Below are positions 3,042 to 24,506 of a DNA stretch of 32,000 bases, one piece after another. A model generated the notes under the pieces. It was given only the letters and a program-made list of their open reading frames with translations, did no database searches and had not been told where the DNA came from. Made by a program: the position numbers and the translations under genes. Every line of letters starts with the position of its first letter. Within the stretch, counting starts at the first letter, position 1. The stretch comes from Pyrobaculum aerophilum str. IM2. Lineage in GTDB: Archaea; Thermoproteota; Thermoprotei; Thermoproteales; Thermoproteaceae. Location of the stretch: contig NC_003364.1 in assembly GCF_000007225.1 (NCBI RefSeq), positions 990,001 to 1,022,000 of the forward strand, given 5' to 3'.

Positions 3042-3065
3042 CTTATAGACTGTAAAATTCTGTAT
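3038..3065. repeat. left copy of a perfect 28-bp direct repeat tcatcttatagactgtaaaattctgtat
   Basis: Identical to 5070-5097 when read base by base. The flanking bases differ on both sides (g/a before, c/t after). Confidence 0.95.
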
Positions 3066-4224: not shown

Positions 4225-4556
4225 TGTAAATGACTTGCTCTCTGCCAAGTGTCCACAAGGCTGAAAGATCTCCCCACACGAGGAAGAACATTTTTGTGAC
4301 GTATTTAGTGTCGAAGAAAATCTTAACTGCATCTTTACTTACATATATTCCCTTGATGCCTACGCCGTATTTCGCGACAAGGAGTATGTACAGCGCGATT
4401 TTGTCGTACATATCAAGCAGGAGGCGTTTTGTGTCGTTATCAACTCTGAAGTTGTCAAGCGTGAGAGACGCTTCGCCAGTCCTCACATGTCAGTCAAAAA
4501 GCACTGCGTAGGCGAGGAATTTCACGACCTCTTCCTCTAACACGTCTATTACGGCG
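4225..4556 (-). pseudogene. degenerate N-terminal region of PaREP2b-like gene A (in-frame TGA plus frame change)
   Basis: The reverse-strand reading ...VVKFLAYAVLFD*HVRTGEASLTLD...LLVAKYGVGIKGIYVSKDAVKIFF... aligns with the LSPLAYAVETHRRGELS... N-terminus of B and C. It is interrupted by a TGA and is out of frame with 3043..4224. Confidence 0.55.
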
Positions 4557-4557
4557 G

Positions 4558-4933
4558 TTGAAGATTAAGGAAGAGGCGCTGGGCTCAGCGGCTGGGTGGT
4601 ATTTTCAATGCTTTGGAGAAACTGCAAACCCACTGAAAGTAGCAAAGAGGCTAGAGGAGTATTTCGCGCTGTGCCAGATGCGGACAGCGGCCAAGAGGGA
4701 ATTCGGAGTGGCGCTATCGGAGAGGGCGCTAAGAGGGGCCTTTTGGTGGGATGGGGAGTGGACGGGCAAGCCCGTGTCGTGCCTCGTCACGGAGAGGGAG
4801 GCGATGTGCAAGTGGGGGAAGTGCCAAGTGGAGATTTGCGGCGAGGGCGGGGACAGACGGCGTGTACATAAAGCCCGAAAGCCCCCTCTACCAGGAGTGG
4901 ATTAAGGCGGCCCACAGCGGCGGCGACAGTTGA
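4558..4933 (+). pseudogene. PaREP2a-like gene, frameshifted
   Basis: Frame 1 (4558..4905) carries ...ALRGAFWWDGEWTGKPVSCLVTEREAMCKWG. The conserved C-terminus KWRFAARAGTDGVYIKPESPLYQEWIKAAHSG lies in a second frame (4751..4933). There is one extra nucleotide relative to copy C within 4811-4830. Confidence 0.7.
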
Positions 4934-5069
4934 GGCGACGTGTGTAAAAGTGGCGCTACCAGAGGCCTTTTCCCTGCTTAATAATAAAGCCAATGGATTT
5001 GCCAATTTATTAACAATATATAGAAAGGAGAAACTCTATGTAGAAAGTATAATAGAAATTAAATGAATA

Positions 5070-5097
5070 TCATCTTATAGACTGTAAAATTCTGTAT
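5070..5097. repeat. right copy of the perfect 28-bp direct repeat
   Basis: Identical to 3038-3065. Here it encodes the last 9 codons and the TGA of the S2P protease gene. Confidence 0.95.
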
Positions 5098-7703: not shown

Positions 7704-9581
7704 TTAATGGTTTTGCTCTTGTCTTTGCGGCCTCCCCTCTCTCCACTGGTCTATTGCGTCTTTTAGTGGTTTGAACCGGCGCAGGGCGTCTAGCTGGTCG
7801 GCGAGGAGGGCCACTCTGCCCTTTCTCGCCTTTCCCGTCAACGCCTTCAACACGGCTACCTCAACATCGTCTCTGACCGTTGGCCGTGCTATTTCGTAGT
7901 AATACGTGACAGTTGTTTTGCCCCTCTCTTCCCGTTTCCTCGCCCAGTACCACTCCATCTTCAACTGTCTCCTCTCCCCTCCAGCTTCGTACTCCGCGAT
8001 TATGCGCAGGCGGCAGTCCTCTCCGGCGCATTGGCCTACGGGTTGGTTGCCTTTAACGAACTCGTACTTTAGGCCTACAACACGGGCAATTAAGTTGCCT
8101 CTATCGTCGTAAACTGGCAACGACGAGTCCACAGTCCCCTCTTCTCTCGCTGGTTTAAGCACATCATTCAGCTTATTAACTGCATCTTGGCCGTACCTAC
8201 GCTCCAACACGTCCTTCAGTTTCCTGATGAAGCGTGCCGCCTCCTTGTCGCCGCCCAGCGCCATGCACTGAATTTCGCGGAGGCCGTCGTAGGTGATGTG
8301 GATTACGTAGTGTCCGCTCCACTTCACGGTGAAGTCTCTGCCCTCCTTAAGCCTCGCCGTCTTTAAGGCGTTTATAACTGCGTCCTTATGGTCTTTTTTG
8401 ACGCTGATTACGCGTTTTCCGTCATCAATAGTGAAGTGTTCGCCCTCCCTCAGCCCGCTCCGTGCTAAAGCCTCAACAGCCTTCGTATATGACTCGTCTG
8501 CTATGCGGATTTCATAACCGCCTTGTTCTGTCACCGTGAAGTGTCTTCCCTCCTCTAGCCCTCTGGCCTTTAAGGCGTTTATGGCAGCGTTTTTAGAGGC
8601 TTCACTGCTTGGTTGATATTTTACCTTTATACGCTTGACTCCTGTCTCGTAATAAACCGAGAACTCCGCGCCGGCGAATTTAACGGTGTTAGGCCCAGCC
8701 TCAATATCTTTCACCAGCTGTTTATACCTATCCTCGCTGATCAGCCCCTTGAGCCCCTCGACAAAGCCTTTTAGCGCGTTTAGCCACCCGTCGTGGCGGA
8801 TGGCTATTATGCCGTCTGTGGTGAGCTGGACTACCCATTTACCCTCAAGAGGTTTAACCTCTGCTACACCTCCAAGCGCTTTGATAATGGATGCTAACCG
8901 ATCGGCGTTTTCGCGTGAGCCGATGAACTGAGCTTGTAGCTCACTGCCGGTCCAATACACGTTTATATGTGCCACTTCTTGCCCGTCAATCTTGAAGCGG
9001 ATGACAGTCTTTGGATAACTCCTGCTTGTGTCCAGCGGATCTCTCTCCACAACAATGTTTCTGCGTAAGTAGTTCTCGACCATTGTTATGATCTCATTAA
9101 ACTTTTTGAAAAAGCTTTCCTCCCTCACGTCGTAAGCCCAATCTACGCCGTATTTTGCCCTTACCACCTCGCCGCTGATTGCTCTAAACGCGTCGGCGAA
9201 TTCTGACAGGGCGTCCCTCGGCTCGTACAGCCTTGGAAGCGCTGGGACTAACGCTTTCAGCAGTTCGTTCAGCTCGGCGCCTCTGAAGACGATGCGATGT
9301 GCATTTCTGCCAGGATATACCGCACTTGGCTTAAGGCCAAGCTCCCTAAGCGCCCAGAGCCAGAACACAGTGAAGTGGTCGCGAGTCATAATCGGACTTT
9401 TCTCTTTTTCGGGGCCGCCTACTACAAGCCCAATATCATCTCTTAACACAACCCCGTCGTACAACACTGAGAATGTTACCGCCAAGGCCGCTTCCTCTCT
9501 GGACAGTTCACCCCTTCTGTGAGTCTCCACGGCGTATGCCAGAGGCGAGAGAACGTGGAAATATTTAGGCAAAAATAGCAT
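7704..9581 (-). CDS. PaREP2b-family protein (cassette B), 625 aa
   Basis: A long open ORF, paralogous to 24403..26325 (91 of the first 110 residues identical by hand alignment) and to 3043..4224. I recognise the family name from memory of Pyrobaculum aerophilum repeat families; the function is unknown. Confidence 0.88.
   Translation of the reverse strand: MLFLPKYFHVLSPLAYAVETHRRGELSREEAALAVTFSVLYDGVVLRDDIGLVVGGPEKEKSPIMTRDHFTVFWLWALRELGLKPSAVYPGRNAHRIVFRGAELNELLKALVPALPRLYEPRDALSEFADAFRAISGEVVRAKYGVDWAYDVREESFFKKFNEIITMVENYLRRNIVVERDPLDTSRSYPKTVIRFKIDGQEVAHINVYWTGSELQAQFIGSRENADRLASIIKALGGVAEVKPLEGKWVVQLTTDGIIAIRHDGWLNALKGFVEGLKGLISEDRYKQLVKDIEAGPNTVKFAGAEFSVYYETGVKRIKVKYQPSSEASKNAAINALKARGLEEGRHFTVTEQGGYEIRIADESYTKAVEALARSGLREGEHFTIDDGKRVISVKKDHKDAVINALKTARLKEGRDFTVKWSGHYVIHITYDGLREIQCMALGGDKEAARFIRKLKDVLERRYGQDAVNKLNDVLKPAREEGTVDSSLPVYDDRGNLIARVVGLKYEFVKGNQPVGQCAGEDCRLRIIAEYEAGGERRQLKMEWYWARKREERGKTTVTYYYEIARPTVRDDVEVAVLKALTGKARKGRVALLADQLDALRRFKPLKDAIDQWREGRPQRQEQNH
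8274..8603 (-). repeat. three tandem modules of about 35 aa inside PaREP2b-B (A[IV]xALKxxGLxEGxHFTV...)
   Basis: The modules are NAAINALKARGLEEGRHFTVTEQGGYEIRI, AVEALARSGLREGEHFTIDDGKRVISV and AVINALKTARLKEGRDFTVKWSGHYVIHI. They are also similar at nucleotide level (gccttaaag...gaggag gg..cacttcac). Confidence 0.8.
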
Positions 9582-9687
9582 TGGCTGAGTACGGCGAAAA
9601 ATACGCCGAGCCTTTAATCAGCGAGTATGCCCTAAGAAGGGCCTTTTGGTGGGAGGGGGAATAGCGTGGCAAGCCGATGTCCTGTTT
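9478..9687. repeat. 210-bp core of the large inverted repeat, perfectly identical to the reverse complement of 24297-24506
   Basis: Read base by base. It covers the first 104 nt of the PaREP2b ORF plus 106 nt upstream. Identity stops abruptly at both ends. Confidence 0.85.
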
Positions 9688-9835
9688 TGTGACGGAGAAA
9701 AAGGCGGTGTGCAAGGTGGGAGAAAAAATGGCCGCGTTTTACGTATTTGACACCCCCCACGGCGTCTACTTAAGGCCGGAGATAAAGCTTGTGGACGACT
9801 GGATTAAAGTGGCGCATAGGGGAGATGATAAGTAA
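9590..9835 (+). pseudogene. PaREP2a-like remnant (cassette B): N-terminally truncated with an in-frame TAG; a residual 52-codon ORF spans 9677..9835
   Basis: It translates as AEYGEKYAEPLISEYALRRAFWWEGE*RGKPMSCFVTEKKAVCKVGEK...VDDWIKVAHRGDDK*. The TAG at 9662-9664 sits where copy A has TGG. Confidence 0.65.
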
Positions 9836-10063
9836 GGCAGTTAAGGCGGCGTGTGTAAAAGTGGCATTGCCTGAAGCATTTTCCTTACCGCGCAAATTCG
9901 GCGTTTCATGGGGGTGTTTCACGCAAGGGGCCTTCTACGGCGTTGACGCCGTTGTGGCAGAGGGTGGCGCTAAGGGGGTGTATGTACGTTACGTACTGCC
10001 TTACGACGTTGAGACAATCTGTGGTTTAAAAAATCTATTTAAACTCGTGGTGGAGGGCGTCTC

Positions 10064-10750
10064 ATGAGGCGGGTTTTAATCACCTTGTTGTCCATCCTGG
10101 GGTTTTCCGCAGTCCTCACGTTCTTCCCCGCTGAGTTTTTCACAGTACTCATACTCTATTTCGTGTTCTTCTTTGGCCTGTCAATTATCATGGGGTTGAG
10201 GTCGTATAGAAAAGGCGTAGTGGCGGCACAGGAGATTTCCAGGGGTAGGCCGCTGATAGAAATAGATGAAAAAGAAGTAAATAAACTATTAGAAAAAGAT
10301 AAAGAGCTAATCAACGAGTACAAGAGATTCGCCAGAGCCTCATTTATGCCCCTACTAACCCTGCCCATATTTATCCTGCTGGCCACGTTTCTATTCCCAA
10401 CTCTGCCGCCCTTGGCCGAGTCCGGGCTTGGACCTGTAGTGGGCCGCGAGGCGGCCAGATTCCTAAGCTATGTAGTTGTATTCGGCATTTTTGCTGTAAT
10501 TTCCATGGCGACTTTTAGGCCGCCTGTTGCCCCGAGGATTGTGAGAAATCTCAAAGTGTACGAGGCGGGTCTGGTAATTGATAAAAGCTTGGGTCTTAAG
10601 GCGCCTATTGAAGTAACAGATTATAAAATAAATGAGGAAAGAAAATTCGTAGAATTTAAATTAAATAATCAGATATTTAGGATTTACTACAAGGATATAA
10701 AAGAACTTGATAGTATTTTATCTAAATTGGTAAGGCGCTTAAAACAGTGA
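10064..10750 (+). CDS. membrane protein (N-terminal and central TM segments, C-terminal soluble domain), function unknown
   Basis: A 228-aa ORF. An A/T box tttaaaaaatctatttaaa ends about 22 nt upstream of the ATG. Hydrophobic segments are present. The 3' end overlaps the convergent P1 gene by 12 bp. Confidence 0.75.
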
Positions 10751-11071
10751 AGCCAAAGATCCGGCGATCTCCTCCTCGCTCGGCCCCTTCTTCTCCTCCT
10801 CTTCCTTTTTCTCCTCGGCCTTAGCTTGAGGCGCTGAGGCGGCGGCGGCAGTAGCCGCTGGAGCCGCAGCGGCTGGAGCGGCTGCAACTGGCGCAAAAGC
10901 CGCGGACTTAATGGCCTCCTCTATATTCACCTCTTTGAGGGCGGCCACTAACGTTTTAATTCTCACTTCGTCTGGCGTTATGCCAGCCGCTTGTAGCACT
11001 CTTGCCAGGTTCTCCTCGTTTATTTCTTGTTTGGCGTAGTGTAACAATAGGGCGCCGTAGATGTACTCCAT
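10739..11071 (-). CDS. ribosomal stalk protein P1 (L12e-type acidic protein)
   Basis: [31 protein letters not shown]..., followed by an Ala-rich hinge and an acidic [25 protein letters not shown] tail. I chose the start at ATG 11071, which is preceded by an A/T box at 11093-11106. Confidence 0.92.
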
Positions 11072-11092
11072 GAAAAGTGACGAGAAGGAGAC

Positions 11093-11106
11093 ATTTAAAA
11101 ATTTTA
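11093..11106 (-). promoter_or_regulatory. TATA-like box (taaaatttttaaat on the reverse strand) for the P1 gene
   Basis: Lies 22-35 nt upstream of ATG 11071. Confidence 0.45.
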
Positions 11107-11114
11107 ACAACCCC

Positions 11115-11318
11115 TTATACCTCTTCGATCTTTACGTTCTTGCTCTTCAACTCCGACAGCACTTGCTCGGCCTTATCTGGCGGGAGTTTAATTGTATAAA
11201 GATAGCCGGAGAGCCGCGCCTTTAGCTTCACGTAGTCCTGATAGCGCTTAACTCTTATCTCCTCCGCCCTTTCGCCATATTGTTTCCAGAGCGCCAGTAG
11301 GAATAACTCCTTTGGCAT
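11115..11318 (-). CDS. rpl38e: ribosomal protein L38e
   Basis: A 67-aa ORF. ...[29 protein letters not shown]... matches the eukaryotic/crenarchaeal L38e core ([29 protein letters not shown]). A TATA-like aaattttatatat lies about 25 nt upstream. Confidence 0.8.
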
Positions 11319-11461
11319 ACCCCCTAGTAGAGAGGGATATATAAAATTTGGCCGGGGTAACCCGCCAGGCTCATCCGCCCCCGCTCAGGGGTGTTACCTA
11401 GGGCTAATCCTTTATTACTCCGAGTTTAAAATTTTTTCGACCCCACAATGAGGCCTTTCGG

Positions 11462-12022
11462 CTAATCTATATTTCTGTGCCTGTACTCTATATGCGGCAA
11501 CGTCCTCATGACTTCAAAGGCGAGGTTTGACAGCTGGTTTAACAGCTTGGCGGCGGGGGCCTCCCCCAGCGAGACCAGCCTCCTCTCGGCCCACCTTATC
11601 CACACCCTCGCCTCGTCCACCGCCGAGCACTCCGGCGAGGCGCAGGCCAGCCAGCTCCCCAGCCGCCCCTCCGGCGCCGCGGCGTAGGCCAGCTTCAGCG
11701 CCCTTCTGTACAGCGCAGTGGCCGTGTCCAAGTACTCAGCCCTCCCGGTGGCGAGGTAGAAGCCCAGCTCCATCAGCGAAAAGGCCACCAGCCTCATGAT
11801 CCTGGCCTGGGGGCGGGGGATGAGGTTTGCGGCCTTGTGGGAGTACGCTATGGCCGTGTCCAACGCGCCGTACAGCTTCACCACGGGGTCGTCCTTCCTG
11901 ACGGGCCTCGCCGAGCCCTTCCAGTAGACTACGGTGTCGCCGCTGTCGCCGGGGCAGGTAAACAGCAATAGACAGGGTTTTATCAGCACTATATACTGCC
12001 ACAAATCTAAATAAAAATACAA
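11462..12022 (-). CDS. PduO-type ATP:cob(I)alamin adenosyltransferase (start uncertain)
   Basis: GDSGDTVVYWKGSARPVRKDDPVVKLYGALDTAIAY resembles the TGDxGxT...RVxKDDxRVEAYGxVDELN N-terminus of PduO/MMAB-type enzymes. The gene is markedly GC-rich compared with its neighbours. Confidence 0.68.
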   Translation of the reverse strand: MYFYLDLWQYIVLIKPCLLLFTCPGDSGDTVVYWKGSARPVRKDDPVVKLYGALDTAIAYSHKAANLIPRPQARIMRLVAFSLMELGFYLATGRAEYLDTATALYRRALKLAYAAAPEGRLGSWLACASPECSAVDEARVWIRWAERRLVSLGEAPAAKLLNQLSNLAFEVMRTLPHIEYRHRNID

Positions 12023-12061
12023 CAGTTAAAATAGTGTGATGACGCCGCTGAGCGACGATTT

Positions 12062-13042
12062 GTGAAGTCATTTCAGCCGTCTGAACAGTTAATAGCCCAC
12101 AGGGTTTTAACTATAATGTTAGTTAAAAAGTCGGAAAAGAGGGGGCCGGGGCTGTTGAGAGAGGAGTTGAAGAGGCCCGGCATTGTCTTAGTCCCCGGGG
12201 TATTCAACGCGTTGACAGCCCTAATGGCGCAAGATCTCGGCTTCAGAGCTGTGTACGTGTCGGGGGCGGCGGTCACGGCCTCAATGGCCCTGCCGGATCT
12301 GGGCCTTATAACTATGGACGAAATGGTCAGGGCTGTGAAATATATAGTAGACGCCGTTGACATACCAGTAATAGTAGATATAGATACTGGATACGGCGAG
12401 GCCCTTAACGTCATGCGCGCAGTACGTGAGTTCGAGGCAATAGGGGCGGCTGGGGTTCAGTTAGAAGACCAGGTTTTGCCGAAAAAATGCGGACACCTAA
12501 GCGGCAAGGCGTTAATACCGCCTGACGAAATGGCGAAGAAAATACGCGCAGCTGTAGAGGCTAGGCGCAATCCAGATTTTGTGATTATTGCGCGTACAGA
12601 CGCCGTAGGCGTCACTGGGTTTGAAGACGCGGTAGAGCGTGCCTTATTATACTTAGAGGCAGGCGCTGATGTAATATTCCCAGAGGCTCTCCGATCTGAG
12701 GAGGAGTTCAGGGAGTTTGCCAGAAGAGTCAAAGCGCCGTTGCTGGCCAATATGACGGAGTTCGGCGTATCGCCTTTAATACCGGCGAAAAAATTGGAGG
12801 AGTTCGGCTATAAATTTGTGATATTTCCAGTAACGGCGCTTCGCGTGGCCATGTATGCAATTAGAGAAGTGTTTAAGACGATCTTGAGAGAGGGGACTCA
12901 GGCGTCTTGGCTCGACAAGATGTTTACTCGAAAAGAACTATACGAGCTAATTAAATATTACGACTACGAGAGAATAGACGGCGAAATCTCAAGCTATATA
13001 GATAATATTTATAAAAAACCTAGAGGAGAGCGCCATGGATAA
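12062..13042 (+). CDS. prpB: methylisocitrate lyase (PEP mutase / isocitrate lyase superfamily)
   Basis: Carries the KKCGHLSGK signature, DIDTGYG and EDQ motifs, and overlaps the downstream prpD-like gene by 8 bp. The true start may be the internal ATG in ..IMLVKKSEK. Confidence 0.82.
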   Translation: MKSFQPSEQLIAHRVLTIMLVKKSEKRGPGLLREELKRPGIVLVPGVFNALTALMAQDLGFRAVYVSGAAVTASMALPDLGLITMDEMVRAVKYIVDAVDIPVIVDIDTGYGEALNVMRAVREFEAIGAAGVQLEDQVLPKKCGHLSGKALIPPDEMAKKIRAAVEARRNPDFVIIARTDAVGVTGFEDAVERALLYLEAGADVIFPEALRSEEEFREFARRVKAPLLANMTEFGVSPLIPAKKLEEFGYKFVIFPVTALRVAMYAIREVFKTILREGTQASWLDKMFTRKELYELIKYYDYERIDGEISSYIDNIYKKPRGERHG

Positions 13043-14396
13043 AATAACTAAAATACTGGCCGAATATACGGAATCGGTAGACTACTCGAAAGTGCCATTA
13101 GAGGTGCGCCACGAGGTAAAGCGGCGTATTATTGACTCTATAGCGGTGGCCTTCGCCGCTTACAGCGCAGAGCCTGTAGTTCTTTCCAGGAGAGCCGCCT
13201 CTAAATTCGCGGTTAGAAAAGGCGCCAGGATTTTAGGCACGCGTTACGAAGTGGCCCCCGACTGGGCGACCTTTGTAAACGGCTTGATGATACGCTACCA
13301 TGACTACAACGACACATACCTCTCTAAAGAGCCGCTACACCCCAGCGATTTAATAGGCGCCGCGCTTGCAGTCGGCGATTATGTGGAGGCCAGAGGAACC
13401 GATTTAATCACCGCGGTGGCGATTGGGTATGAGGCCTCGGTGACTTTCTGCGACGGCGGCACGTTGCGCAAAAGGGGGTGGGATCACGTCAACTTCTTGG
13501 GCATAGGCAGCGTGTTGGCCTCTGCGAAGCTCCTCGGCTTAGATGCAGTTAAGACGCAACACGCCCTCTCGATTTACGCAGTGCCCCACGCGGCAATGAG
13601 ACAGACTAGAGTCGGCGAGTTGTCTATGTGGAAGGGCGCCGCAGCCGCTAACTCGAGCAGAAACGCGGTATTCGCCGCGTTGCTGGCGCAAGAGGGCTTC
13701 ACGGGGCCGTACAAACCCTTCGAGGGGGAGATGGGGTTCTTTAGGCAGTTGCTACAAGGAGACTTCGACGTGTCTGTGCTAAGCGGAATAGAGGCCAAGA
13801 ACCCGCCGCGCAGAATCCTCGACACTTATATAAAGCCTTACCCGGTGGAATACCACGCCCAGACCGCCGTAGAGGCCGCGTTGAGACTGAGGGAGAAGGT
13901 GAGAATAGAGGAAATTGAGAAGATTAGAATAGACACCTACGAGGCCGCGTATACAATTATAGGGCCTAAGGACCCGGAGAAGTGGGATCCCCACACTAAA
14001 GAGACCGCCGACCATTCGCTAATGTGGATAACGGCGGCGGCCTTCGTCTGGGGGCCTATAAAAATTGAACACTACAAGGACATTCGCAACCCCGCCGTCC
14101 TCACGCTCATGAAGAAAATTGAAGTCAACCTAGACCCAGAGCTGGACAAGCTGTACCCCCAGGCCTTCCCCACCGTGATAACCGTCTACACAAAGGGAGG
14201 CGCCAAATACACCGAGAGGGTAGACTACGCCAAGGGCCATCCCAAAAACCCAATGACAGACGCCGAGCTTGAGGCCAAATTCACGGCGCTGACTCAAGAC
14301 ATATTGCCAGAAGAGGTAAGGGGAAAAGTGTTGCAGATGCTCTGGCGCCTCGAAGATTACAACATAAAAGACATAATAGAAGCTCTTGTAGCCTAA
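13035..14396 (+). CDS. prpD: 2-methylcitrate dehydratase (MmgE/PrpD family)
   Basis: A 453-aa ORF with PrpD-like sequence throughout (RRIIDSIAVA..., HPSD..., WDHVNFLG..., GHPKNPMTDAELEAKF). It is coupled to prpB. Confidence 0.88.
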   Translation: MDKITKILAEYTESVDYSKVPLEVRHEVKRRIIDSIAVAFAAYSAEPVVLSRRAASKFAVRKGARILGTRYEVAPDWATFVNGLMIRYHDYNDTYLSKEPLHPSDLIGAALAVGDYVEARGTDLITAVAIGYEASVTFCDGGTLRKRGWDHVNFLGIGSVLASAKLLGLDAVKTQHALSIYAVPHAAMRQTRVGELSMWKGAAAANSSRNAVFAALLAQEGFTGPYKPFEGEMGFFRQLLQGDFDVSVLSGIEAKNPPRRILDTYIKPYPVEYHAQTAVEAALRLREKVRIEEIEKIRIDTYEAAYTIIGPKDPEKWDPHTKETADHSLMWITAAAFVWGPIKIEHYKDIRNPAVLTLMKKIEVNLDPELDKLYPQAFPTVITVYTKGGAKYTERVDYAKGHPKNPMTDAELEAKFTALTQDILPEEVRGKVLQMLWRLEDYNIKDIIEALVA

Positions 14397-14476
14397 CCAC
14401 TAGAACGACCTGTACCTGGCTAAATTTGCCTATGAATGCATAGCCAACTTTCAGATTGGCGCGTAGGATTTAAGCC

Positions 14477-14728
14477 TCAGCCGTAAATACAGATTATAAC
14501 TATTATCTCCTTCTCCCTCTTAGCAATTCTCGCCCCCATTTCGTTAATCTTTTCCAGCTCAAAAGAGGTTTTTCCTCCTAACCAGAACTCCATGTCTTCT
14601 GGAGCGTCCGGATAGTAGAAATGTGACGTCAGTAAGCGCTTATTGTGAGGCGCTATTGCGAGAAGTGTGCCAAAAACCCGTTCCTCATAGTGTCGCCTGG
14701 TCCGTTCCCGCACATGCAAGTACGTCAT
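14477..14728 (-). CDS. hypothetical 83-aa protein (weak call)
   Basis: ATG at 14728 opens MTYLHVRERTRRHYEERVFGTLLAIAPHNKRLL...EKINEMGARIAKREKE. No family recognised and no convincing TATA box. It lies in a 640-bp stretch otherwise lacking genes. Confidence 0.35.
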   Translation of the reverse strand: MTYLHVRERTRRHYEERVFGTLLAIAPHNKRLLTSHFYYPDAPEDMEFWLGGKTSFELEKINEMGARIAKREKEIIVIICIYG

Positions 14729-15039
14729 TTTTCTGCGCAAAGTCTTGTTCCACAAGCTGGCTGATAAGGCTGTAGTTCTTTGGCAACTCCGGCGTTTGCA
14801 AAGACTTGCTTGAGGGGGCCAAAGCAAGCGTAAAGGAGGGGAATACCGGAGAATACGCTTAACCCCGCTGTGCTGTACTGGGCATGACGCCTCGGAGCGC
14901 TGCTCCAGAGAAGAATAGCTTCCCGTGATGCCAAGGCCGTGCTATACCTCCTTCGCGACCTTTGAGTATTATGGACTAATTCCGAAAATGTTTTTGCCAA
15001 GAATCGAACGAGAAATAAAGAGGGGAAGTGTTTCACGAT

Positions 15040-17094: not shown

Positions 17095-17098
17095 CGGC

Positions 17099-17626
17099 GT
17101 GGTGTTAAAATACTTGTTTTTCCCTCTTTTTGTCGTTCTTTTTTCGTCCCTTGGTATTCTTCTCGTTGGGTGGTCCCCTTGGGTTGGGCTTTTTGTGGGT
17201 TTGTGGTATTGGGGGGTTGTGTGGTGGTGTATTGGGCTTTGGCACTGGCTTTTGGGAGCCCGCTTGTCGGCGAGATACGCCCTCTTGCTTTTAGCCCCGG
17301 CGGCCCCTTATCTCCTCGCGCCGCTTATCCACGAGGCGACTGCCGGGGCCAGCTTCGCCTTGTGGGCTTGGCTCGGGATGTCCCTCTACTTAGTGTACAA
17401 GCCGTTGAGATTTAGGAGGCGCATTGCCGCCTTTTTGATATCCCTACTCGTCTTCTGGACGGCTGGCGGCCTTGTTGCGGTCCTCCTAGTCGCCGCGTTG
17501 AGAAGAGAGATTTTCGAAAGCCCCTACATCAACCTCCCCGCTCTGAGCGTAGCCCTCCTCCCAGCACTCACTGCCGGGATAATTGCCGCGTGGCTGGCGC
17601 TAAGAGCGCTGAGGAAGTGGCTGTAG
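17099..17626 (+). CDS. Trp-rich polytopic membrane protein, orphan
   Basis: A GTG at 17099 lies 4 nt after the upstream TAG (5 nt from its last base); the track start at 17063 overlaps the upstream gene. It contains segments such as WSPWVGLFVGLWYWGVVWWCIGLWHWLL and about 5 TM helices. Confidence 0.68.
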   Translation: MVLKYLFFPLFVVLFSSLGILLVGWSPWVGLFVGLWYWGVVWWCIGLWHWLLGARLSARYALLLLAPAAPYLLAPLIHEATAGASFALWAWLGMSLYLVYKPLRFRRRIAAFLISLLVFWTAGGLVAVLLVAALRREIFESPYINLPALSVALLPALTAGIIAAWLALRALRKWL

Positions 17627-18018
17627 CATGCGTCCTTGACTATAGCCCTCTTTTCTCAAGGGAGTCTTACTCTCTTTAGATCTCCCTTTCCATCTAACAG
17701 GGCGCCCTGGGCGGCTCTATGCAACGGCCGGGAGTTCTCTTTATTATCACATCGCCCAACAAGGCCATTGCATAGTGCATGCCTCGGCCACCACGAGGGC
17801 ACGCCGTGCCGCGCCCCTCGGCCTATTAAATCAACATATGCGAGGCCCTAAAACTACTCAAGCAACTCTGTGCGCTACGACTTCCAAGCCGATGATGTAC
17901 GCCAGCAAAGTATGCCGATGGGTATACCCTAAAGGCGAGTTTACGGGCGTTAAGCCAAACTGAGAATTACTATTCGACAATAAACTAACGAAAAAAAAGA
18001 CTGTAATTTCTTGGGACT

Positions 18019-18204
18019 ATGGAACGGAAAATAGTCCTCGGCTTAGCGCTAGCGGCCGAAGCGGTGCTGATGTTTTCCGCCACTTATCCAGATCAGAAGT
18101 TTAGACCCCTTGTTGCAAGAGTTCAGTACGAGGCGAGGTGGGGGTTCTTCTTTCGTAGCGCTGATACAATTAATAAAGCTTTGGGAGTAGTAGGGTGGAA
18201 ATGA
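18019..18204 (+). CDS. small membrane or secreted protein (61 aa)
   Basis: It has an N-terminal hydrophobic segment. Its TGA overlaps the ATG 18201 of the next gene in an ATGA arrangement, which suggests translational coupling. An A-rich box lies about 25 nt upstream. Confidence 0.5.
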   Translation: MERKIVLGLALAAEAVLMFSATYPDQKFRPLVARVQYEARWGFFFRSADTINKALGVVGWK

Positions 18205-19070
18205 TAAGGCCCATTGCCCTACTCGTCATAGCGCTAGCTGTTGCCGTGCAGGCAGGCGTGCTGTATGTAAACATGTCTAAATACGTCGTCGAAGTCAACA
18301 CCACCTGCGGACCTGCGTACATATTCACTGCGCCGTTTGACTACGCCCCTCTTCTAGGCGAGTGGCTCGTCGAGCAAGGATTTGTTGAGAAGTATGACAG
18401 CCCCATCCGCAAGAAGGCCAGGGAAATGCTCGGCATAAAGTCAGAAGACAACGTAACTTTAGAGCAGTGGAACTCGTTAGTGGCGCTTGACCAATCTCTA
18501 CTAAGCGACAAGGTTAAAGCCGTGGAAGATGCGTTAAGAAAGGCGGGTGTTGAGGTTATAGAGGTAGGCGGCGCGAGTACAGTTAAGATCCCCAACGACA
18601 GTGCTAACAACGGCACCGTATACGCCTTTGTTAGGCTCGGCGGGAGGCTTGACGTGTTGAAGAGGCTGGAAAATGTGGCCAACGATTATAACATCTCTAT
18701 AATAGTAGTCGATTTGCCAAGAGTTAAGGCCCTTCGGACAAATAAAACAGTGGACTTCATACCGGGGCTAGGCGCCCCAACACACGGCATAGTACCGTTG
18801 ACAATATTCGGGCCGTTTGGCGACGTTGTGTATTACGTGCGCCAGCCTGACGAAGAGGCCATTAGGGCGGTTGAAAAACACTTGAAGGAAAGGGAACTGT
18901 GCGGAGTGGCGGTATTGTTCGTACCTAGCGAGAGGTACGTCCCCCGCCTAACGCCCTTGAGAGAACAAACAGGGCTTGCGGCAGATTTCATCTGGATTGC
19001 GCTGGCCGTGGGGACAATCGCCGTAGTCATAGCCTCGCTGTATATACGTAGGTCGTTGGGTTATGTTTAA
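18201..19070 (+). CDS. secreted protein with C-terminal TM anchor; its architecture resembles the protease-partner family (21361..22242)
   Basis: It has a signal peptide MIRPIALLVIALAVAVQA, an early VEVNTTC motif (compare VVVNKTC), and a C-terminal anchor FIWIALAVGTIAVVIASLYIRR. The paralogy is only architectural or weak. Confidence 0.75.
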   Translation: MIRPIALLVIALAVAVQAGVLYVNMSKYVVEVNTTCGPAYIFTAPFDYAPLLGEWLVEQGFVEKYDSPIRKKAREMLGIKSEDNVTLEQWNSLVALDQSLLSDKVKAVEDALRKAGVEVIEVGGASTVKIPNDSANNGTVYAFVRLGGRLDVLKRLENVANDYNISIIVVDLPRVKALRTNKTVDFIPGLGAPTHGIVPLTIFGPFGDVVYYVRQPDEEAIRAVEKHLKERELCGVAVLFVPSERYVPRLTPLREQTGLAADFIWIALAVGTIAVVIASLYIRRSLGYV

Positions 19071-19094
19071 AATTAGCGCTTATAGATTAATGGC

Positions 19095-19486
19095 AAATGC
19101 ACCGCAAGATCCCGGAGGAAGCAGATATTCAAAACTCGGATTTAATTGCGGGTGTGACTCAAAACCTTATTATATACTTTCGCGGTCAAGTGGGTAACGA
19201 ATTAGTTTATATACTGGTGAAACCCAATGGGAGTAGTACAAAAGTTTGTCCAGGCGATAGCGAAGGTCCTGTCTTCTACATGTGGAGTCAAAGAATAGAT
19301 TCTATGACGGTATATTATGCGAATGTTCTTGGTATTACAAAAGCAACTAATGCCGAAAGGACGGTGTTAGTTGCTGACGAGGCGCTTAATAGGTTGCAAG
19401 TATATCTCTATATACGTATAGATCATGAAAGCGCTGTTACTTACTTTAATACTCGTAACGTTAATCCTTGCGGTACCCCAGATTAA
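19095..19486 (+). pseudogene. C-terminal fragment of an S1 serine protease gene (decayed copy of 22246..23073)
   Basis: Nucleotide homology to the reverse complement of 22246-22600 starts at aaatgc(a/g)ccgcaagatcccggagg. The fragment lacks the His and Asp regions, has an internal frame change, reads GDSEGP in place of GDSGGP, and has a 1-nt deletion that removes the stop. Confidence 0.8.
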
Positions 19487-20461
19487 AGTTGTATATGATT
19501 TTAACGGTATAGTTGTAAATAAGACGTGTTATTTAGCCAAGACGCAGAAGTACTGGCCCATACCTATTGCAACGATCTCAGTAGAGGTAAATAAAGATAA
19601 ATTCGCCAAGATGATGCCCCCTATTAGGGCCTTTATCGAAGAGTTAAGGAGGACACCCGGCGTATATGTCAGAGCCGGAGATGACTACGAGGAGGCGCTA
19701 AATAGGCTGAAAAGAGGCGAGGTGGATAGGGTTTCTCTGTGGTTTGAAGTGTTCGTATTTAACAATAAATCGTTGATAGGGCGTATAGTAGAAAAAGCGA
19801 AAAGTCTTGGGTTGGGATTAGCGGTATACTACATTAATGCCACAAATCCAGGCCCGTTTCCAAGTCCCAGGGAAATACTCGACATGTTCCGCTCTTGGCA
19901 TAATGAGTATATTGAGAAATTATTGAGAAATATGGAAAAAATGCGCTCTTCGGTTTACTTATCACATCGCACGAAGTCCCTGTGGTATTTCTCCTAGTTG
20001 TCAACGCCACAGAGGAGGAGGCCGATAAAGTGGCGGCGCGGGTAAGGGAGATCGTGCCCTGTAGATACCCAATAGTTTACTTTACAGACAAGCTAATTTT
20101 ATTACCGTATAGGGGCCCTGAGGCAGATCTAGGCAATGCTTCCGTTGCGGAGGGCGCGCATGCCGTGTCTTCAGAAGGGGGTACTGGGGGCGGCGCAACC
20201 GCTGTAGAGAGCGCGTCTGCATCGCCTGCGGCAGAACGCGCCGGCAGCAAAACACAATGGACTGGCGTAATGCCGGTAGCCTTGTTCGCGGCGCTTGTGG
20301 CGGTATTGTTAGGTAGGATCACCCAAGGAAGGAATTTACTTGAACTTTTTAAATTCCATGCAGATGGGGGATTTAATGGACGTGGATTACGACGTAATAA
20401 TCGTGGGGGCCGGCATAGCTGGACTGTCAGCAGCCTTGTATACGGCCAGGCAGAGGCTTAA
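19425..20461 (+). pseudogene. frameshifted paralogue of the protease-partner gene 21361..22242
   Basis: It is split into ORFs 19425..19997 and 19982..20461. Both halves align with the intact right-hand copy (AVPQIKVVYDFNGIVVNKTCYLAKT..., ...VVNATEEEADKVAARVREIVPC...). The frame breaks at an 11-bp tandem duplication. The 3' end lacks the ancestral stop and runs into trxB. Confidence 0.8.
19910..19931 (+). repeat. 11-bp tandem duplication (tattgagaaat x2) causing the frameshift
   Basis: The copies at 19910-19920 and 19921-19931 are identical. Removing one gives ...EYIEKYGKNALFGLLITSHEVPVVFLLVVNATEEEAD, which is colinear with ...KYVKAYGNRSLLLGFELDMPLIVLGVINATEEEAD of the intact copy. Confidence 0.9.
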
Positions 20462-21341
20462 AACTCTCGTTATTAGCAGGGATTTAGGAGGACAGCTAAA
20501 TATGACTACGCTTATTGAAAACTACCCAGCGATACCTAAAATATCTGGGCCGGAGCTGGCAAAGAGAGTTGAACAGCAAGCCAGGACTTTCGGCGCCGAG
20601 ATAATTTTCGACGAAGTGAAAGCCGTGGAGAAACACGGCGACGTTTTTGTGGTAAAGACTGAGGGGGGAGATGAGTACAAGAGCTTGGCCGTGATCCTCG
20701 CCTTTGGCAAGACGCCTAAAGAGCTGGGAGTTCCCGGCGAGTCGAAATTTAAGAACAGAGGCGTCTCCTACTGTACTATCTGCGACGCCCCGTTTTTCAA
20801 AGGACAAGATATAGCGCTGATCAGCTGGGGCGACTTGGCCAGAGAGCCCGTCACAATACTCTCCTCAGTGGCTAATAAGTTCTACTGGATATATCCTGGG
20901 GAGAAGCCTATTCACGACGACGAGTTTATAGAACAAGCCAAGAGGCTGGGCAAAGCGGTTTTCGTGCCAAACAGCGAAGTTGTTGAAATTAAAGGCGACA
21001 CTAAGGTGAAGTCTGTGGTAGTTAAGAACAGGAAGACCGGCGAGACCCAGGAACTGCCCGTCTCCGCGGTGTTTATAGAGGTTGGCTATGTCACTAAAAG
21101 CGACTTTGTTAAACACCTTGTTGAGCTTAACGAGAGGGGCGAGATCATAGCCGATTGGGAGGGAAAGACTAAAACCCCCGGCGTCTTTGCCGCCGGCGAT
21201 ATTGTGGCCTATCCCTATAAACAAGCGGTGATATCTGCCGCCATGGGCGTAGCCGCCGCGCTGTCAGCAACGGCATATGTAATGAAACTAAAAGGAAAGC
21301 CAGTCCACAGCCTAGTGGACTGGAGGGCCGAGAAAAAATAG
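20376..21341 (+). CDS. trxB: thioredoxin reductase (FAD/NAD(P)-dependent pyridine nucleotide-disulfide oxidoreductase)
   Basis: It carries DYDVIIVGAGIAGLSAA (GxGxxG), a redox-active CTIC and GVFAAGD. I chose ATG 20376 because the A/T box ctttttaaatt (20345-20355) lies about 25 nt upstream; the track ORF extends to 20340. Confidence 0.88.
   Translation: MDVDYDVIIVGAGIAGLSAALYTARQRLKTLVISRDLGGQLNMTTLIENYPAIPKISGPELAKRVEQQARTFGAEIIFDEVKAVEKHGDVFVVKTEGGDEYKSLAVILAFGKTPKELGVPGESKFKNRGVSYCTICDAPFFKGQDIALISWGDLAREPVTILSSVANKFYWIYPGEKPIHDDEFIEQAKRLGKAVFVPNSEVVEIKGDTKVKSVVVKNRKTGETQELPVSAVFIEVGYVTKSDFVKHLVELNERGEIIADWEGKTKTPGVFAAGDIVAYPYKQAVISAAMGVAAALSATAYVMKLKGKPVHSLVDWRAEKK
21090..21138 (+). repeat. 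49-bp segment of trxB that recurs inverted at 21504-21552
   Basis: gtcactaaaagcgactttgttaaacaccttgttgagcttaacgagaggg compared with the reverse complement of 21504-21552 gives 46 of 49 identical by hand count. Confidence 0.9.
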
Positions 21342-21360
21342 GGGATTTAAATATGCGTCC

Positions 21361-22242
21361 TTAAAATCGATCACCTGCTCTGTACAATACCACCGCGAGC
21401 GTTGCCAAGGCCGCAAACAAAGCCGCCAGCAATACGCCAACCCAATCCATTGGGCTATCGGCGCTTTTCGCTACAAGCGCGTCCTCTACAGCGGGTGCGT
21501 CGTCCCTCTTGTTGAGCTCAACGAGGTGTTTAACAAAGTCGCTTTTAGTGACATTGCCCATAGCCGTCTCATCTGGAGATTTCTGGTGTAGTAAGTAAAA
21601 CTTAGTTGCGTAGTATATCATTGGGTATTCGCACGGCACTATTCCCCTCATCTGGGCCGCCACCTTATCGGCCTCTTCCTCAGTGGCGTTTATGACTCCT
21701 AGCACTATTAGAGGCATGTCTAACTCAAACCCTAAGAGAAGGCTTCTATTCCCATATGCTTTAACGTATTTTTTGGCCCATTCGAGTGTCACCTCAATCA
21801 TCTTCTTGCGGCCGGGGTATTCTGGAGCCTTGGCGTTGATGTAGAAAATCGTCATCCCCACCTCAAGCCCCTTTGCCCTCCTCACTACGTAATCTATCAG
21901 AGACTTGTTGCCGAATATGTACACCTCAAGGGATAAGTTGACCCTGTCCTCTCCGCTGTCTTTCAGCCTTCTCAGCGCCTCTTCGCTGAGAATTTCATCT
22001 CCGCGGATGTACACGCCTGGCATTTTCTTTAAGTCTTCTACAAACGCCTTAACTGAAGGCAACATCTTGGCCGCCCTGTCGATTTCCATCAAGGCCTTAA
22101 CCTTTGGCGCAATCACTTCCGGAGTCTTGGCGAGGTAGCAAGTCTTGTTTACAACAACGCCCCCGAAATCATAGACTATCTCTATTTGAGGCGCCGCCAG
22201 CAACAGCGCGGCGACCGCTAGAATAAGCGGGAGTGATCTCAT
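21361..22242 (-). CDS. secreted, C-terminally membrane-anchored protein encoded immediately downstream of the S1 protease (partner protein, function unknown)
   Basis: A 293-aa ORF with signal peptide MRSLPLILAVAALLLAAP and C-terminal anchor WVGVLLAALFAALATLAVVLY. Its ATG lies 3 nt after the protease TAG. Confidence 0.85.
   Translation of the reverse strand: MRSLPLILAVAALLLAAPQIEIVYDFGGVVVNKTCYLAKTPEVIAPKVKALMEIDRAAKMLPSVKAFVEDLKKMPGVYIRGDEILSEEALRRLKDSGEDRVNLSLEVYIFGNKSLIDYVVRRAKGLEVGMTIFYINAKAPEYPGRKKMIEVTLEWAKKYVKAYGNRSLLLGFELDMPLIVLGVINATEEEADKVAAQMRGIVPCEYPMIYYATKFYLLHQKSPDETAMGNVTKSDFVKHLVELNKRDDAPAVEDALVAKSADSPMDWVGVLLAALFAALATLAVVLYRAGDRF
21504..21552 (-). repeat. trxB-derived 49-bp patch inside the linker region of the protease-partner gene
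   Basis: It encodes VTKSDFVKHLVELNKR, compared with VTKSDFVKHLVELNER in TrxR. The decayed paralogue has unrelated sequence at this position. Confidence 0.9.
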
Positions 22243-22245
22243 GAT

Positions 22246-23073
22246 CTATAACGTATATAGATAAACTTGTAATCTGTTAAGCGCTTCGTCAATAGGCGTA
22301 ACATATATTGCCGTTGGATTGCTAACATCGTTTACTCCTTTTATTAAACCAAGCACATTTGCGTAATATACAACCATAGAGTCTATCCTTTGACTCCACA
22401 TGTAGAAAACAGGCCCTCCGCTGTCGCCTTGACAGGCATTTATCCTCCCCCCTCCATCCTTAATGAGTCTATAGACGAGTGCTATTATTCCATTCTCGTC
22501 AATCACATACGTTACTTTATCTATTTTGAGGCCCCAATCGTAGCCACACCTATATCCGAGTTTTGAATATCTGCTACCTCCGGGATCTTGCGGCGCATTT
22601 ACTATTGTGTAGTACCAGTTCACCAGGGCGTCAGTCTGGAATCCCACTGCGGAGGTGGCTATCCAAGGCCTCACAGTTCTACTTGAGGCCTCTATTTTTA
22701 TAAGCGCCGCGTCAATTACGGGCGTTGTGCCGCTGTAGTAGCTGTCTCTAATTACTGTCCCTATATAGTTATTATCGCCTACGTTTAGGTTCCTATACGG
22801 TTGGTAAACCGCGTCTTGGTACTGGCTATTTGTACAATGGCCGGCAGTTAAATATCCAAATACCCGGCTACCGCTCTCATACCAGTACACAGCCACGCCG
22901 AGGCTACAGTAGCCCACTGTGAAATATCTGTCGGGGGTTTGGTCATACCCCACCTCGATCTGGACGCCACCGGCTAAGTCGTTCCACCTGTCTGTCAGCG
23001 ATAGCCCGTAGGCGGCGGCCGCAAGCACCAATGCCGAAATAGCCCCCAGCCTAGCGAGCCCGGGTTTAGGCAT
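22246..23073 (-). CDS. chymotrypsin-fold (S1 family) serine protease with N-terminal signal/anchor
   Basis: The catalytic triad contexts are LTAGHC (His), DAALIKI (Asp) and CQGDSGGPV (Ser). The N-terminal hydrophobic segment is LARLGAISALVLAAAAYG. Confidence 0.85.
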   Translation of the reverse strand: MPKPGLARLGAISALVLAAAAYGLSLTDRWNDLAGGVQIEVGYDQTPDRYFTVGYCSLGVAVYWYESGSRVFGYLTAGHCTNSQYQDAVYQPYRNLNVGDNNYIGTVIRDSYYSGTTPVIDAALIKIEASSRTVRPWIATSAVGFQTDALVNWYYTIVNAPQDPGGSRYSKLGYRCGYDWGLKIDKVTYVIDENGIIALVYRLIKDGGGRINACQGDSGGPVFYMWSQRIDSMVVYYANVLGLIKGVNDVSNPTAIYVTPIDEALNRLQVYLYTL

Positions 23074-23158
23074 ATTTTACTGATTTTCCAGTCTTTTTTT
23101 TACTTTCACGTTTTGTCGTAATTTTTTACGTTTTTTGGCTAATATGCCGTTGGGGAAA

Positions 23159-23168
23159 GTTTTTAATA
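23159..23168 (+). promoter_or_regulatory. TATA-like box gtttttaata for the S19 gene
   Basis: The centre lies about 25 nt upstream of ATG 23189. Confidence 0.45.
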
Positions 23169-23188
23169 GGGGTGGGGTTGGGTGGTTG

Positions 23189-23665
23189 ATGTCTTCAAAG
23201 GAGCAAGAGGCCCAGAAGGGAAAGCAGGGATGGATTACCCCAACTGTGATACCTCCAGAGGAGTGGGCTACGTTTAGGTACAGGGGGAAGACGTTGGAAG
23301 AGCTTTTAAACATGTCCATGGACGAGTTTATAAAACTGCTTCCCGCCAGGCAGAGGAGGAGCTTAAAGAGGGGGCTTAAGCCTGAGCACAGAAAGCTACT
23401 TGAAAAAATACGTAAAGCGAAAAGATTAGCGGCGCAGGGTAAGAAAGTCGTTATAAGAACCCATTGTAGAGACATGATTATCCTCCCCGAGATGGTCGGC
23501 TTAACTATTCACGTGTACAACGGAATTACCTACATACCGGTGTTCATATCGCCGTGGCACATCGGCCACTATTTGGGAGAATTCGCCCTGACGACAAAAA
23601 TCGTTCAACACGGCGAACCCGGCCTCAAGGCAACTAGGTCGTCATTACACATCGCGGCTAAGTAA
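23189..23665 (+). CDS. rps19: ribosomal protein S19 (uS19 / S15e)
   Basis: [35 protein letters not shown]...[28 protein letters not shown] is typical uS19. I chose the start at ATG 23189; the track ORF begins at 23135. Confidence 0.92.
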
Positions 23666-23666
23666 T

Positions 23667-24107
23667 ATGACTGCAATAAAACTACAGACAAGGCCTAGGC
23701 CTGGGGACGTATTCACCCTGCCCAACGGGAAAAGGGTGGAGGTGAAGAACATAGGGATACCTCACGTCTTGCCCCCGGCCAGCGTCTGCGACGATCCCCT
23801 CTGCCCCTGGCACGGCCACCTCAAAGTGCGATTGAAGCTTTTGGAGGTCACCGTGGAGAAGGTCAGAATGCACAAAGCCGCCGTTGTTATTCACGAGTGG
23901 CTACACTACATTCGTAAGTACAACAGATATGAGCGCAGGCGCAAGAGGATGAGAGTGAGAGTGCCTGAGTGCATAGAGGTGAAGCCTGGCGACAAGGTTA
24001 TAATTGCAGAGACGAGGCCGCTGTCTAAAACCATTGCCTGGGTTGTGATAGGGAAAAAAGAAGATGTCGTAGAGTGGAAGGCTAAGCACGAAACTCTCCA
24101 AGCTTAG
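23667..24107 (+). CDS. rps17: ribosomal protein S17 (uS17 / S11e)
   Basis: CDDPLCPWHGHLKVR...YIRKYNRYERRRKRMRVRVP...GDKVIIAETRPLSKTIAWVV matches the uS17 pattern. Confidence 0.92.
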   Translation: MTAIKLQTRPRPGDVFTLPNGKRVEVKNIGIPHVLPPASVCDDPLCPWHGHLKVRLKLLEVTVEKVRMHKAAVVIHEWLHYIRKYNRYERRRKRMRVRVPECIEVKPGDKVIIAETRPLSKTIAWVVIGKKEDVVEWKAKHETLQA

Positions 24108-24118
24108 CCCATTAAGCT

Positions 24119-24394
24119 TTAAGGGCCTCCGATAGGGCGGTTTTTGCACACGTCGCCTTCGCCACTGTGGGCCACTTTAATCCACTCCTGGTATAGTGGG
24201 CTTTCTGGCTTTATGTACACGCCGTCTGCTCCCGCCCTCACTGTGAATCTCCACTTCGTGCTCCCCCACTTGCATACCGCCTCCCTCTCCGTCACGAAAC
24301 AGGACATCGGCTTGCCACGCTATTCCCCCTCCCACCAAAAGGCCCTTCTTAGGGCATACTCGCTGATTAAAGGCTCGGCGTATTTTTCGCCGTA
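24119..24394 (-). pseudogene. PaREP2a-like remnant (cassette C): N-terminally truncated with an in-frame TAG; a residual 62-codon ORF spans 24119..24307
   Basis: The reverse strand reads ...ALRRAFWWEGE*RGKPMSCFVTEREAVCKWGSTKWRFTVRAGADGVYIKPESPLYQEWIKVAHSGEGDVCKNRPIGGP*. The TAG is at 24322-24320. Confidence 0.65.
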
Positions 24395-24506
24395 CTCAGC
24401 CAATGCTATTTTTGCCTAAATATTTCCACGTTCTCTCGCCTCTGGCATACGCCGTGGAGACTCACAGAAGGGGTGAACTGTCCAGAGAGGAAGCGGCCTT
24501 GGCGGT
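24297..24506. repeat. 210-bp core of the large inverted repeat (partner of 9478-9687)
   Basis: Perfect reverse-complement identity when read base by base. Confidence 0.85.

Follow-up and report, generated by a model that had tools for sequence, protein, structure and literature searches.

Patchy ectopic gene conversion as the probable origin of a 210-nt identical block in two diverged, inverted PaREP2 cassettes of Pyrobaculum aerophilum

The 32,000-nucleotide (nt) stretch of the Pyrobaculum aerophilum str. IM2 chromosome analyzed here (NC_003364.1, positions 990,001 to 1,022,000; hereafter the window, numbered from its first letter) holds two cassettes of the PaREP2 family, B and C, which lie in opposite orientations on either side of a segment of ordinary genes. 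The cassettes are clearly diverged, yet a block of 210 nt is the same in both at every position. How does one perfectly identical segment come to stand in two copies that differ so widely around it? An earlier note on this DNA had proposed either a recent gene-conversion tract or strong constraint on the segment, and had pointed to the block as a substrate for inverting the DNA between the cassettes. The conversion tract is the best explanation and is shown directly by comparisons between strains; with a probability that we put at roughly 0.85, the block is the footprint of recurrent, bidirectional, short-patch ectopic gene conversion between the old paralogues B and C.

The block copy in cassette B (9478-9687) is the exact reverse complement of the copy in cassette C (24297-24506; neither copy is assigned a strand), with 210 of 210 positions matching in the computed alignment, and the two copies are separated by 14,609 nt. 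They are embedded in a diverged inverted repeat, the left arm of which is cassette B (7723-9722) and the right arm cassette C (24261-26294), itself a strain-polymorphic insertion. In a gapped alignment of 2057 columns, 7723-9722 and 26294-24261 are 76.4% identical. The block is the longest perfect run in this alignment, the runner-up being 38 nt; when the columns were shuffled 20,000 times, the longest run had a mean of 24.7 and a maximum of 64, and none reached 210. Calculated analytically, a 210/210 match has a probability of about 1e-25 if the 74% identity of the flanks is assumed, and a local baseline as high as 89% raises this only to about 5e-9. Both edges are abrupt. On the PaREP2b side, identity stops at 24506/9478 and is followed by 5 mismatches in 10 nt, while on the PaREP2a side a single mismatch (9688 A vs 24296 G) is followed by 9 further matches and then by strong divergence, with 58% identity across the next 137 nt. 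The pairwise alignment of the arms therefore bears out what the earlier note had claimed from inspection: identity at every position with no mismatch inside the boundaries it had drawn, abrupt ends on both sides, and arms that are inverted and clearly diverged rather than uniformly identical. Its hand count of 91 identical residues among the first 110 of PaREP2b is also recovered, as 35 of 35 followed by 75% of the next 75. An artifact of the IM2 assembly can be ruled out because both copies are recovered in independent assemblies, the C copy being matched at 100% in contig L008 and the B copy at 100% in L004, L020, and L026.

The block spans the first 104 nt of the PaREP2b open reading frame (ORF) and 106 nt upstream of it, as had been stated. 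The PaREP2b genes of cassette B (7704-9581, minus strand, 625 residues) and cassette C (24403-26325, plus strand, 640 residues) encode exact matches to the IM2 proteins AAL63668.1 and AAL63691.1, respectively, both of which are annotated as paREP2b. Their membership in the family is clear from PF07775 matches of 891 bits (E-value 2e-268, with the domain starting from residue 108) for B and 893 bits (E-value 5e-269) for C, against a Pfam cutoff of 20.4. Both genes are 5'-truncated. Many family members are 950-1027 residues long, and compared with these paralogues the B protein is without ~355 N-terminal residues, while residue 4 of the C protein aligns to residue 359 of the 991-residue full-length paralogue D. 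A divergent PaREP2a gene (PF07903) adjoins PaREP2b in the cassettes, and that of a further cassette, A, scores 120 bits. In B and C of IM2, PaREP2a is reduced to a 5'-truncated remnant in which the first ~40 residues are gone, no ATG is present, and the frame is interrupted by a TAG. The remnant of cassette B lies at 9569-9835 on the plus strand, with the in-frame TAG at 9662-9664 (translation AKIALAEYGEKYAEPLISEYALRRAFWWEGE*RGKP...), and that of cassette C lies at 24119-24415 on the minus strand, with the in-frame TAG at 24320-24322; the 62-residue piece 3' of the latter TAG has a PF07903 hit on record.

PaREP2a homology extends to 24415 and PaREP2b homology runs from ~24416, and the present ATG of PaREP2b (24403) sits within antisense PaREP2a sequence. 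B and C carry one common derived head-to-head fusion of a truncated PaREP2a to a truncated PaREP2b. The junction (~24415/24416; B partner 9568/9569) lies together with the overlapping start codons in 24401-24417, and the block, roughly centered on it, extends for 119 nt in one direction and 91 nt in the other. What had been taken for the divergent control region, the 106 nt upstream of PaREP2b, is in fact coding sequence of the opposite-strand truncated PaREP2a with its TAG, although promoters may lie there. A/T-rich boxes beside the start codons, picked out by eye (TGATTAAA at 24364-24371, GTATTTTTC at 24380-24388, and CTAAATATTTC at 24416-24426), are candidates for archaeal TATA elements of the divergent gene pair. 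We note that a plus-strand ORF at 24144-24419 (91 residues) runs antisense to the PaREP2a remnant and is unsupported as a gene.

The strain comparison draws on the same locus recovered from ~10 other P. aerophilum genomes, metagenome-assembled genomes (MAGs), and metagenome contigs through exact-protein look-ups with S17, DUF2208, ERCC4, and PaREP2b variants. To locate the tract edges, each copy was scored as B-type or C-type at the 71 sites from 24200 to 24620 where the two types differ. The B cassettes of IM2, L004, and L022 are B-type up to 24296, whereas those of L026 and of the MAG GCA_026414425.1 are C-type at 24296, that of L024 is C-type at 24283-24296, and that of L020 is C-type at 24296 and again at 24507-24516, past the IM2 edge. 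In the opposite copy, the C cassette of L011 is B-type at 24275-24296. With edges that are shifted between strains, and with B- and C-type patches found in opposite copies, the tract ends must move and transfer must have run in both directions.

Orthologues that are unconverted or differently converted add to this picture. The B cassette of NMUE, which is without cassette C, departs from the block at 10 of its 210 positions, among them TGG in place of the TAG and a cluster of four linked variable sites (24401, 24403, 24407, and 24413; B partners 9583, 9581, 9577, and 9571). TGG leaves the PaREP2a frame of this copy intact, and the gene is annotated as an 86-residue PaRep2a (PF07903). The MAG, colinear with the window at 99.7% identity, has a B that differs from the block at 5 sites. 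Between its own B and C there are four clustered differences (24401-24413) and complete identity over 24286-24400, such that the C-like TAG stretch is present in B and the four-site cluster is retained; either this tract is interrupted or it predates the last event in IM2. The start codons accordingly occur in two states. In state 1, CCAATGCTATTTTTGCC, which B and C of IM2 share, the PaREP2b codon is ATG and the PaREP2a codon ATA; in state 2, CAATTGCCATTTTCGCC, seen in B of NMUE, the MAG, and L024, the codons are TTG for PaREP2b and ATG for the 86-residue PaREP2a. There is also a concerted change at 24437/9547, where both IM2 copies have C and both MAG copies have T. Taken as a whole, the block shows the features of a conversion tract: identity above that of its flanks, inclusion of synonymous and nonfunctional sites, unconverted or differently converted orthologues, and a shared lineage-specific variant (at one site).

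The polarity of transfer is suggested by L009, in which a C-type cassette adjoining S17 carries a PaREP2a with a full N-terminus (MAALKDWYRRWF...). L009 differs from the block at 7 positions between 24344 and 24398, all 7 of which are synonymous for PaREP2a; 4 of the 7 are common to the unrelated truncated cassette E, and the B cassette of NMUE equals the block at those sites. Across 24297-24343, by contrast, it is L009 that equals the block and NMUE B that differs. The simplest history that would fit these patterns has three steps. The stretch 24344-24400, and probably also the junction and the stretch to 24506, would have been copied from B to C; ~24286-24343, with the PaREP2a-killing TAG, would then have been copied from C to B in an IM2-like lineage; and IM2 would finally have gained an extra patch over 24401-24413, making the copies identical. 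The likely route is break or gap repair templated by the paralogue, with patchy resolution of mismatches. The tract would be confined to this stretch because it has the highest baseline similarity and because heteroduplex could not be sustained across flanks as diverged as these (58% identity on one side, 5 mismatches in 10 nt on the other). In Sulfolobus acidocaldarius, a hyperthermophilic crenarchaeon without MutS/MutL, conversion tracts are short and discontinuous, heteroduplex extends over hundreds of bp, and mismatch resolution is uncoordinated (PMC3367456). By analogy, this mode of conversion would yield the pattern observed at the B/C block.

Several points weigh against conversion between B and C as the full account. 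L009, on which the polarity leans, is a short metagenome contig and may be chimeric with another C-like paralogue. A third PaREP2 copy could have served as a common donor, the other IM2 PaREP2 copies being outside the comparison. The concerted change is a single site, and full-block sequences of both B and C come from only two distinct genomes, namely, IM2 (plus a near-clone on a JGI contig) and the MAG. In L020, B is "converted" although C is absent, which requires an extra assumption: C may have been lost, the B allele may have been imported between strains, or another paralogue may have been the donor. Compared with IM2, the L020 genome is a mosaic, with 97% identity on the B side but ~86% on the C side. 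Lastly, part of the conservation of the block is due to constraint, in that other truncated paralogue pairs are 81-89% identical across the same stretch and mostly 58-80% identical in the flanks (some recombinant flanks reach 92%).

This raised baseline is the part of the "strong constraint" proposal that stands. The stretch is better conserved than most flanks in the other truncated pairs as well, the motifs LPLAYAVE..RGELSREEAALAV and ALRRAFWWEGEWRGKP recur family-wide, and the A/T-rich boxes lie beside the start codons, all of which would fit motifs conserved on both strands together with start regions. Purifying selection alone, with overlapping functions that constrain every position and have left it unchanged since B and C split, is nevertheless an improbable source of the identity. 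A baseline of 81-89% cannot yield 210 matches without a synonymous difference, as the probability given above for 89% indicates. Over the 34 full codons in the block there are 0 differences between B and C, and the first difference, at 24507 in codon 35, is synonymous. Outside the block, the proportion of synonymous differences in PaREP2b (pS) is 0.52, the synonymous divergence (dS) is ~0.9, and the ratio of nonsynonymous to synonymous divergence (dN/dS) is ~0.22; there, B and C are old paralogues under purifying selection. The chance of zero synonymous difference in the block is ~4e-9. Moreover, the opposite-strand half of the block is a pseudogene in IM2, interrupted in both copies by the identical nonsense codon; strains also vary within the block, as NMUE shows, and the edges of the block move. 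Baseline constraint cannot account for the perfect identity or for the strain-to-strain pattern, and selection as the sole cause is already largely refuted by the strain data. A structured RNA or riboswitch-like element was considered as well and rejected, since the block contains no match to an Rfam family and its folding shows no excess stability over shuffles on either strand (z-scores of +0.35 and -0.03).

A reciprocal crossover is a further way in which the arms could have become identical, with the 14.6-kb segment inverted once, or still inverting, and the identity left behind as associated heteroduplex. The setting is suitable: as in other invertible segments, inverted repeats flank the DNA in question, 210 nt of perfect inverted identity is an adequate substrate, and Pyrobaculum oguniense populations contain inversions at inverted duplications, one of them with a paREP-associated gene (PMC3558965). 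Assemblies also break here, with 8 of 9 short-read contigs that enter C from S17 ending between 24277 and 24423, the inner segment of GCA_013329805.1 forming a contig of its own (14,655 nt), both ends of which lie 23 nt inside the block, and a JGI scaffold bearing a run of N within the B block. Such breaks, however, are expected at any perfect repeat longer than the assembler k, inverted or not. The contigs that cross cassette B (L004, L006, L007, L020, L024, and L026) all read DUF2208-B-M50 peptidase and those that cross cassette C (L005 and L008) read S17-C-ERCC4, which is the IM2 arrangement in each case. No inverted isomer was found among the cassette-spanning contigs, a small sample in which short-read contigs break at the block, such that isomers at low frequency may still occur. 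Among the strain sequences scored, no B/C chimera stays switched past the block. Four independent assemblies that are without C have S17 beside ERCC4, which makes the IM2 orientation ancestral, and the window ORFs of at least 70 residues that were scanned contain no recombinase or integrase domain. We consider the crossover unlikely as the source of the block; inversion through the block, as the earlier note had envisaged, is reasonable yet unsupported here. Least probable is a homing-like conversion in which a PaREP2b or PaREP2a nuclease cuts near the junction and repair copies the flanks. The tract is centered on one site and the cassettes are insertion-polymorphic, as such a process might leave them, and Foldseek searches of two libraries with a full-length PaREP2b model give weak matches to LAGLIDADG homing endonucleases (E-values of 6e-3 to 4e-2). 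These hits have template-modeling (TM) scores of ≤0.19 and a root-mean-square deviation of ~18 Å, they are lost with a domain-level model, where only ferredoxin-like matches are found, and PaREP2b matches no nuclease, transposase, integrase, or other enzymatic family in Pfam, NCBIfam, PHROGs, and PDB sequence searches. The nuclease idea was rejected for now. An integration-site idea was likewise dropped, as there are no tRNA genes in the window.

What PaREP2b itself may be is suggested by the same models. The AlphaFold model of the C protein has a predicted local distance difference test (pLDDT) score of 85, and a domain model of residues 285-460 has a pLDDT of 90; both show tandem beta-beta-alpha units. 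The domain model matches ferredoxin-like beta-alpha-beta-beta-alpha-beta units (ATX1/HMA, ACT, and PII) with a TM score of ~0.54 over ~70 residues, and the models predict that PaREP2b is built from tandem ferredoxin-like repeats. Internal repeats ~69 residues apart are also present in the sequence (8324-8395 vs 8531-8602; residues ~300-455); they are modeled as tandem ferredoxin-like beta-alpha-beta units with the recurring motif ...NALKA.GL.EG.HFTV. This fold class is absent from the PaREP2b annotations examined. There is no evidence of a cassette-encoded nuclease or transposase, though the cassettes clearly come and go between strains.

The fusion junction on which the conversion tract is centered is not confined to B and C. 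A junction-derived N-terminus, MLF[L/S]PKYFHV, is present in five proteins, those of B and C and P0005, P0016, and P0019. In a neighbor-joining tree of the PaREP2b body (from C residue 111 onward, with the 22 paralogues covering that part), these five are scattered among full-length paralogues, with bootstrap support of 0/200 for their monophyly and 0/200 for a pairing of B with C. The 5' module and the gene bodies must therefore have separate histories. P0016, from cassette E, is 88% B-like over residues 36-110 and 68% in the body, and the cassette as a whole resembles B at its 5' end and C farther inside. These comparisons suggest that recombination among PaREP2 cassettes is general and that the B-C block would be its most recent instance. 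It is also conceivable, though we regard it as doubtful, that the junction block is a portable module that is spread by short-patch conversion among non-sister cassettes, disseminating the internal deletion and acting as a recombinational on/off switch for the gene pair, possibly tied to cassette mobility. In such a switch, state 1 would combine the PaREP2b ATG with a TAG-interrupted PaREP2a, as in IM2, and state 2 would supply the PaREP2a ATG, the frame being intact (TGG) only in NMUE.

The same fusion junction is found at other loci. Cassette E (L038/L039, 3747-5896) lies between Lsm and Lhr-helicase genes in NMUE and NMUF, cassette F (L040, 27-1952) adjoins the PheRS beta gene in GCA_038741535.1, and cassette G (L041) lies at an unrelated locus on a metagenome contig. 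The last of these is 81% identical to B and to C within the block, and 75% (B) and 82% (C) identical over longer aligned stretches. It was the one further paralogue returned by a scan of metagenome contigs with a 23-nt core of the block, which yielded no recombinant. A scan of genome contigs for PaREP2b, among genomes that do not include IM2, returned three distant P. oguniense loci only.

Cassettes A, C, and D are each missing in some strains. C (24112-26325) is missing in L020, L023, L042, and L043, where S17 is followed by 20 nt and then ERCC4; no clear target duplication was seen at its insertion. In C-less strains the S19-S17 DNA is ~84.6% identical to IM2, compared with 98% in the C-carrying L014, and L020 and L023 encode an unchanged S17 protein. 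It follows that the cassette travels with a divergent S19-S17 haplotype. Cassette A (3038-5097) is missing from NMUE and forms a 2032-bp insertion in IM2. An exact direct repeat of 28 nt, TCATCTTATAGACTGTAAAATTCTGTAT (3038-3065 and 5070-5097), borders it on both sides and is single copy at the empty site; ordinary transposases seldom produce a target duplication of this length, and an att-type or microhomology event seems the better match. The full-length PaREP2b D (991 residues) begins at the right end of the window (~31762-32000; L005 17359-20334), and no PaREP2a was detected within 550 nt upstream of it. D is missing from L008, L029, L030, L042, and L043, in which DUF2204 is followed directly by threonyl-tRNA synthetase.

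The inner segment between the block copies (9688-24296) encodes, by Pfam and Rfam matches, DUF2208, P1, L38e, the H/ACA small RNA (sRNA) PyrR205, cobalamin adenosyltransferase, prpB, prpD, and unknown ORFs, followed by a trxB-like gene, a trypsin-like protein, S19, and S17; the seven genes that had been listed for it (P1, L38e, prpB, prpD, trxB, S19, and S17) and its size of 14.6 kb are all recovered. The middle of the segment (14400-23100), which had been called housekeeping, does not have the same gene content in every strain. The trxB-like gene comes immediately after prpD in L020, L023, and L014, where a 472-residue gene stands in place of the pair of 275- and 293-residue genes; NMUE has yet another arrangement. 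The H/ACA-like PyrR205 (RF02803, 86 bits) lies at 11347-11407 on the minus strand, between the L38e and cobalamin adenosyltransferase genes. Two further inverted repeats lie within the segment, one at 19089-19343 and 22338-22606 (80-87% complementary, arms ~3 kb apart) and one of 59 nt at 21084-21142 and 21500-21558 (92% complementary), which spans the place where the trxB-like gene and the neighboring 293-residue gene converge.

Ectopic gene conversion and concerted evolution are classically known in bacteria from tufA/tufB and the rRNA operons. The B/C block resembles such systems in being a bounded island of identity in diverged paralogues, in the homogenization of synonymous and noncoding sites, in tract ends that vary by lineage, and in tract lengths of tens to a few hundred nt. 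Unlike the tuf and rRNA cases, the partners are ~24% diverged, the tract is pinned to a head-to-head fusion junction, a nonsense codon is among the things spread, and no selection for homogeneity is evident. The strain with four unconverted sites in midtract recalls the patchy conversion of S. acidocaldarius (PMC3367456). In P. oguniense, inverted repeats bracket 22-173 kb and both orientations occur, in 17-35% of reads (Bernick et al. 2012, PMC3558965). That system belongs to the same genus, has a geometry comparable to the 14.6 kb seen here, and includes a paREP-associated case, but at B/C the second orientation appears in no assembly and the perfect part of the repeat is only 210 nt. PaREP2b has been termed a "putative transposon" (PMC3558965). 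B and C agree with the PaREP2 family (PF07775 PaRep2b and PF07903 PaRep2a) in their Pfam scores, divergent a/b genes, and strain-dependent presence, and depart from its full members in being internally deleted, with PaREP2a minus ~40 and PaREP2b minus ~355 N-terminal residues. Invertible promoter switches such as fim and hin also place inverted repeats near the start or promoter regions of divergent genes. In contrast to these, B and C come without a site-specific recombinase, their repeats lie 14.6 kb apart around ordinary genes, and no orientation variants were observed.

There is a small chance that the junction is a recombinational switch. Otherwise, the block is an ordinary, well-resolved example of a process already known, here in a large family that has been little studied, and no general principle is altered by it. 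It explains why short-read assemblies of Pyrobaculum break exactly at this place, and it clarifies the anatomy of PaREP2 cassettes, at least five of which share one deletion junction despite bodies that are unrelated in the tree. As a natural case of short, patchy, bidirectional conversion between ~24%-diverged repeats in a hyperthermophilic crenarchaeon, followed at single-nucleotide resolution across strains, it matches a pattern that only laboratory crosses in Sulfolobus had shown.

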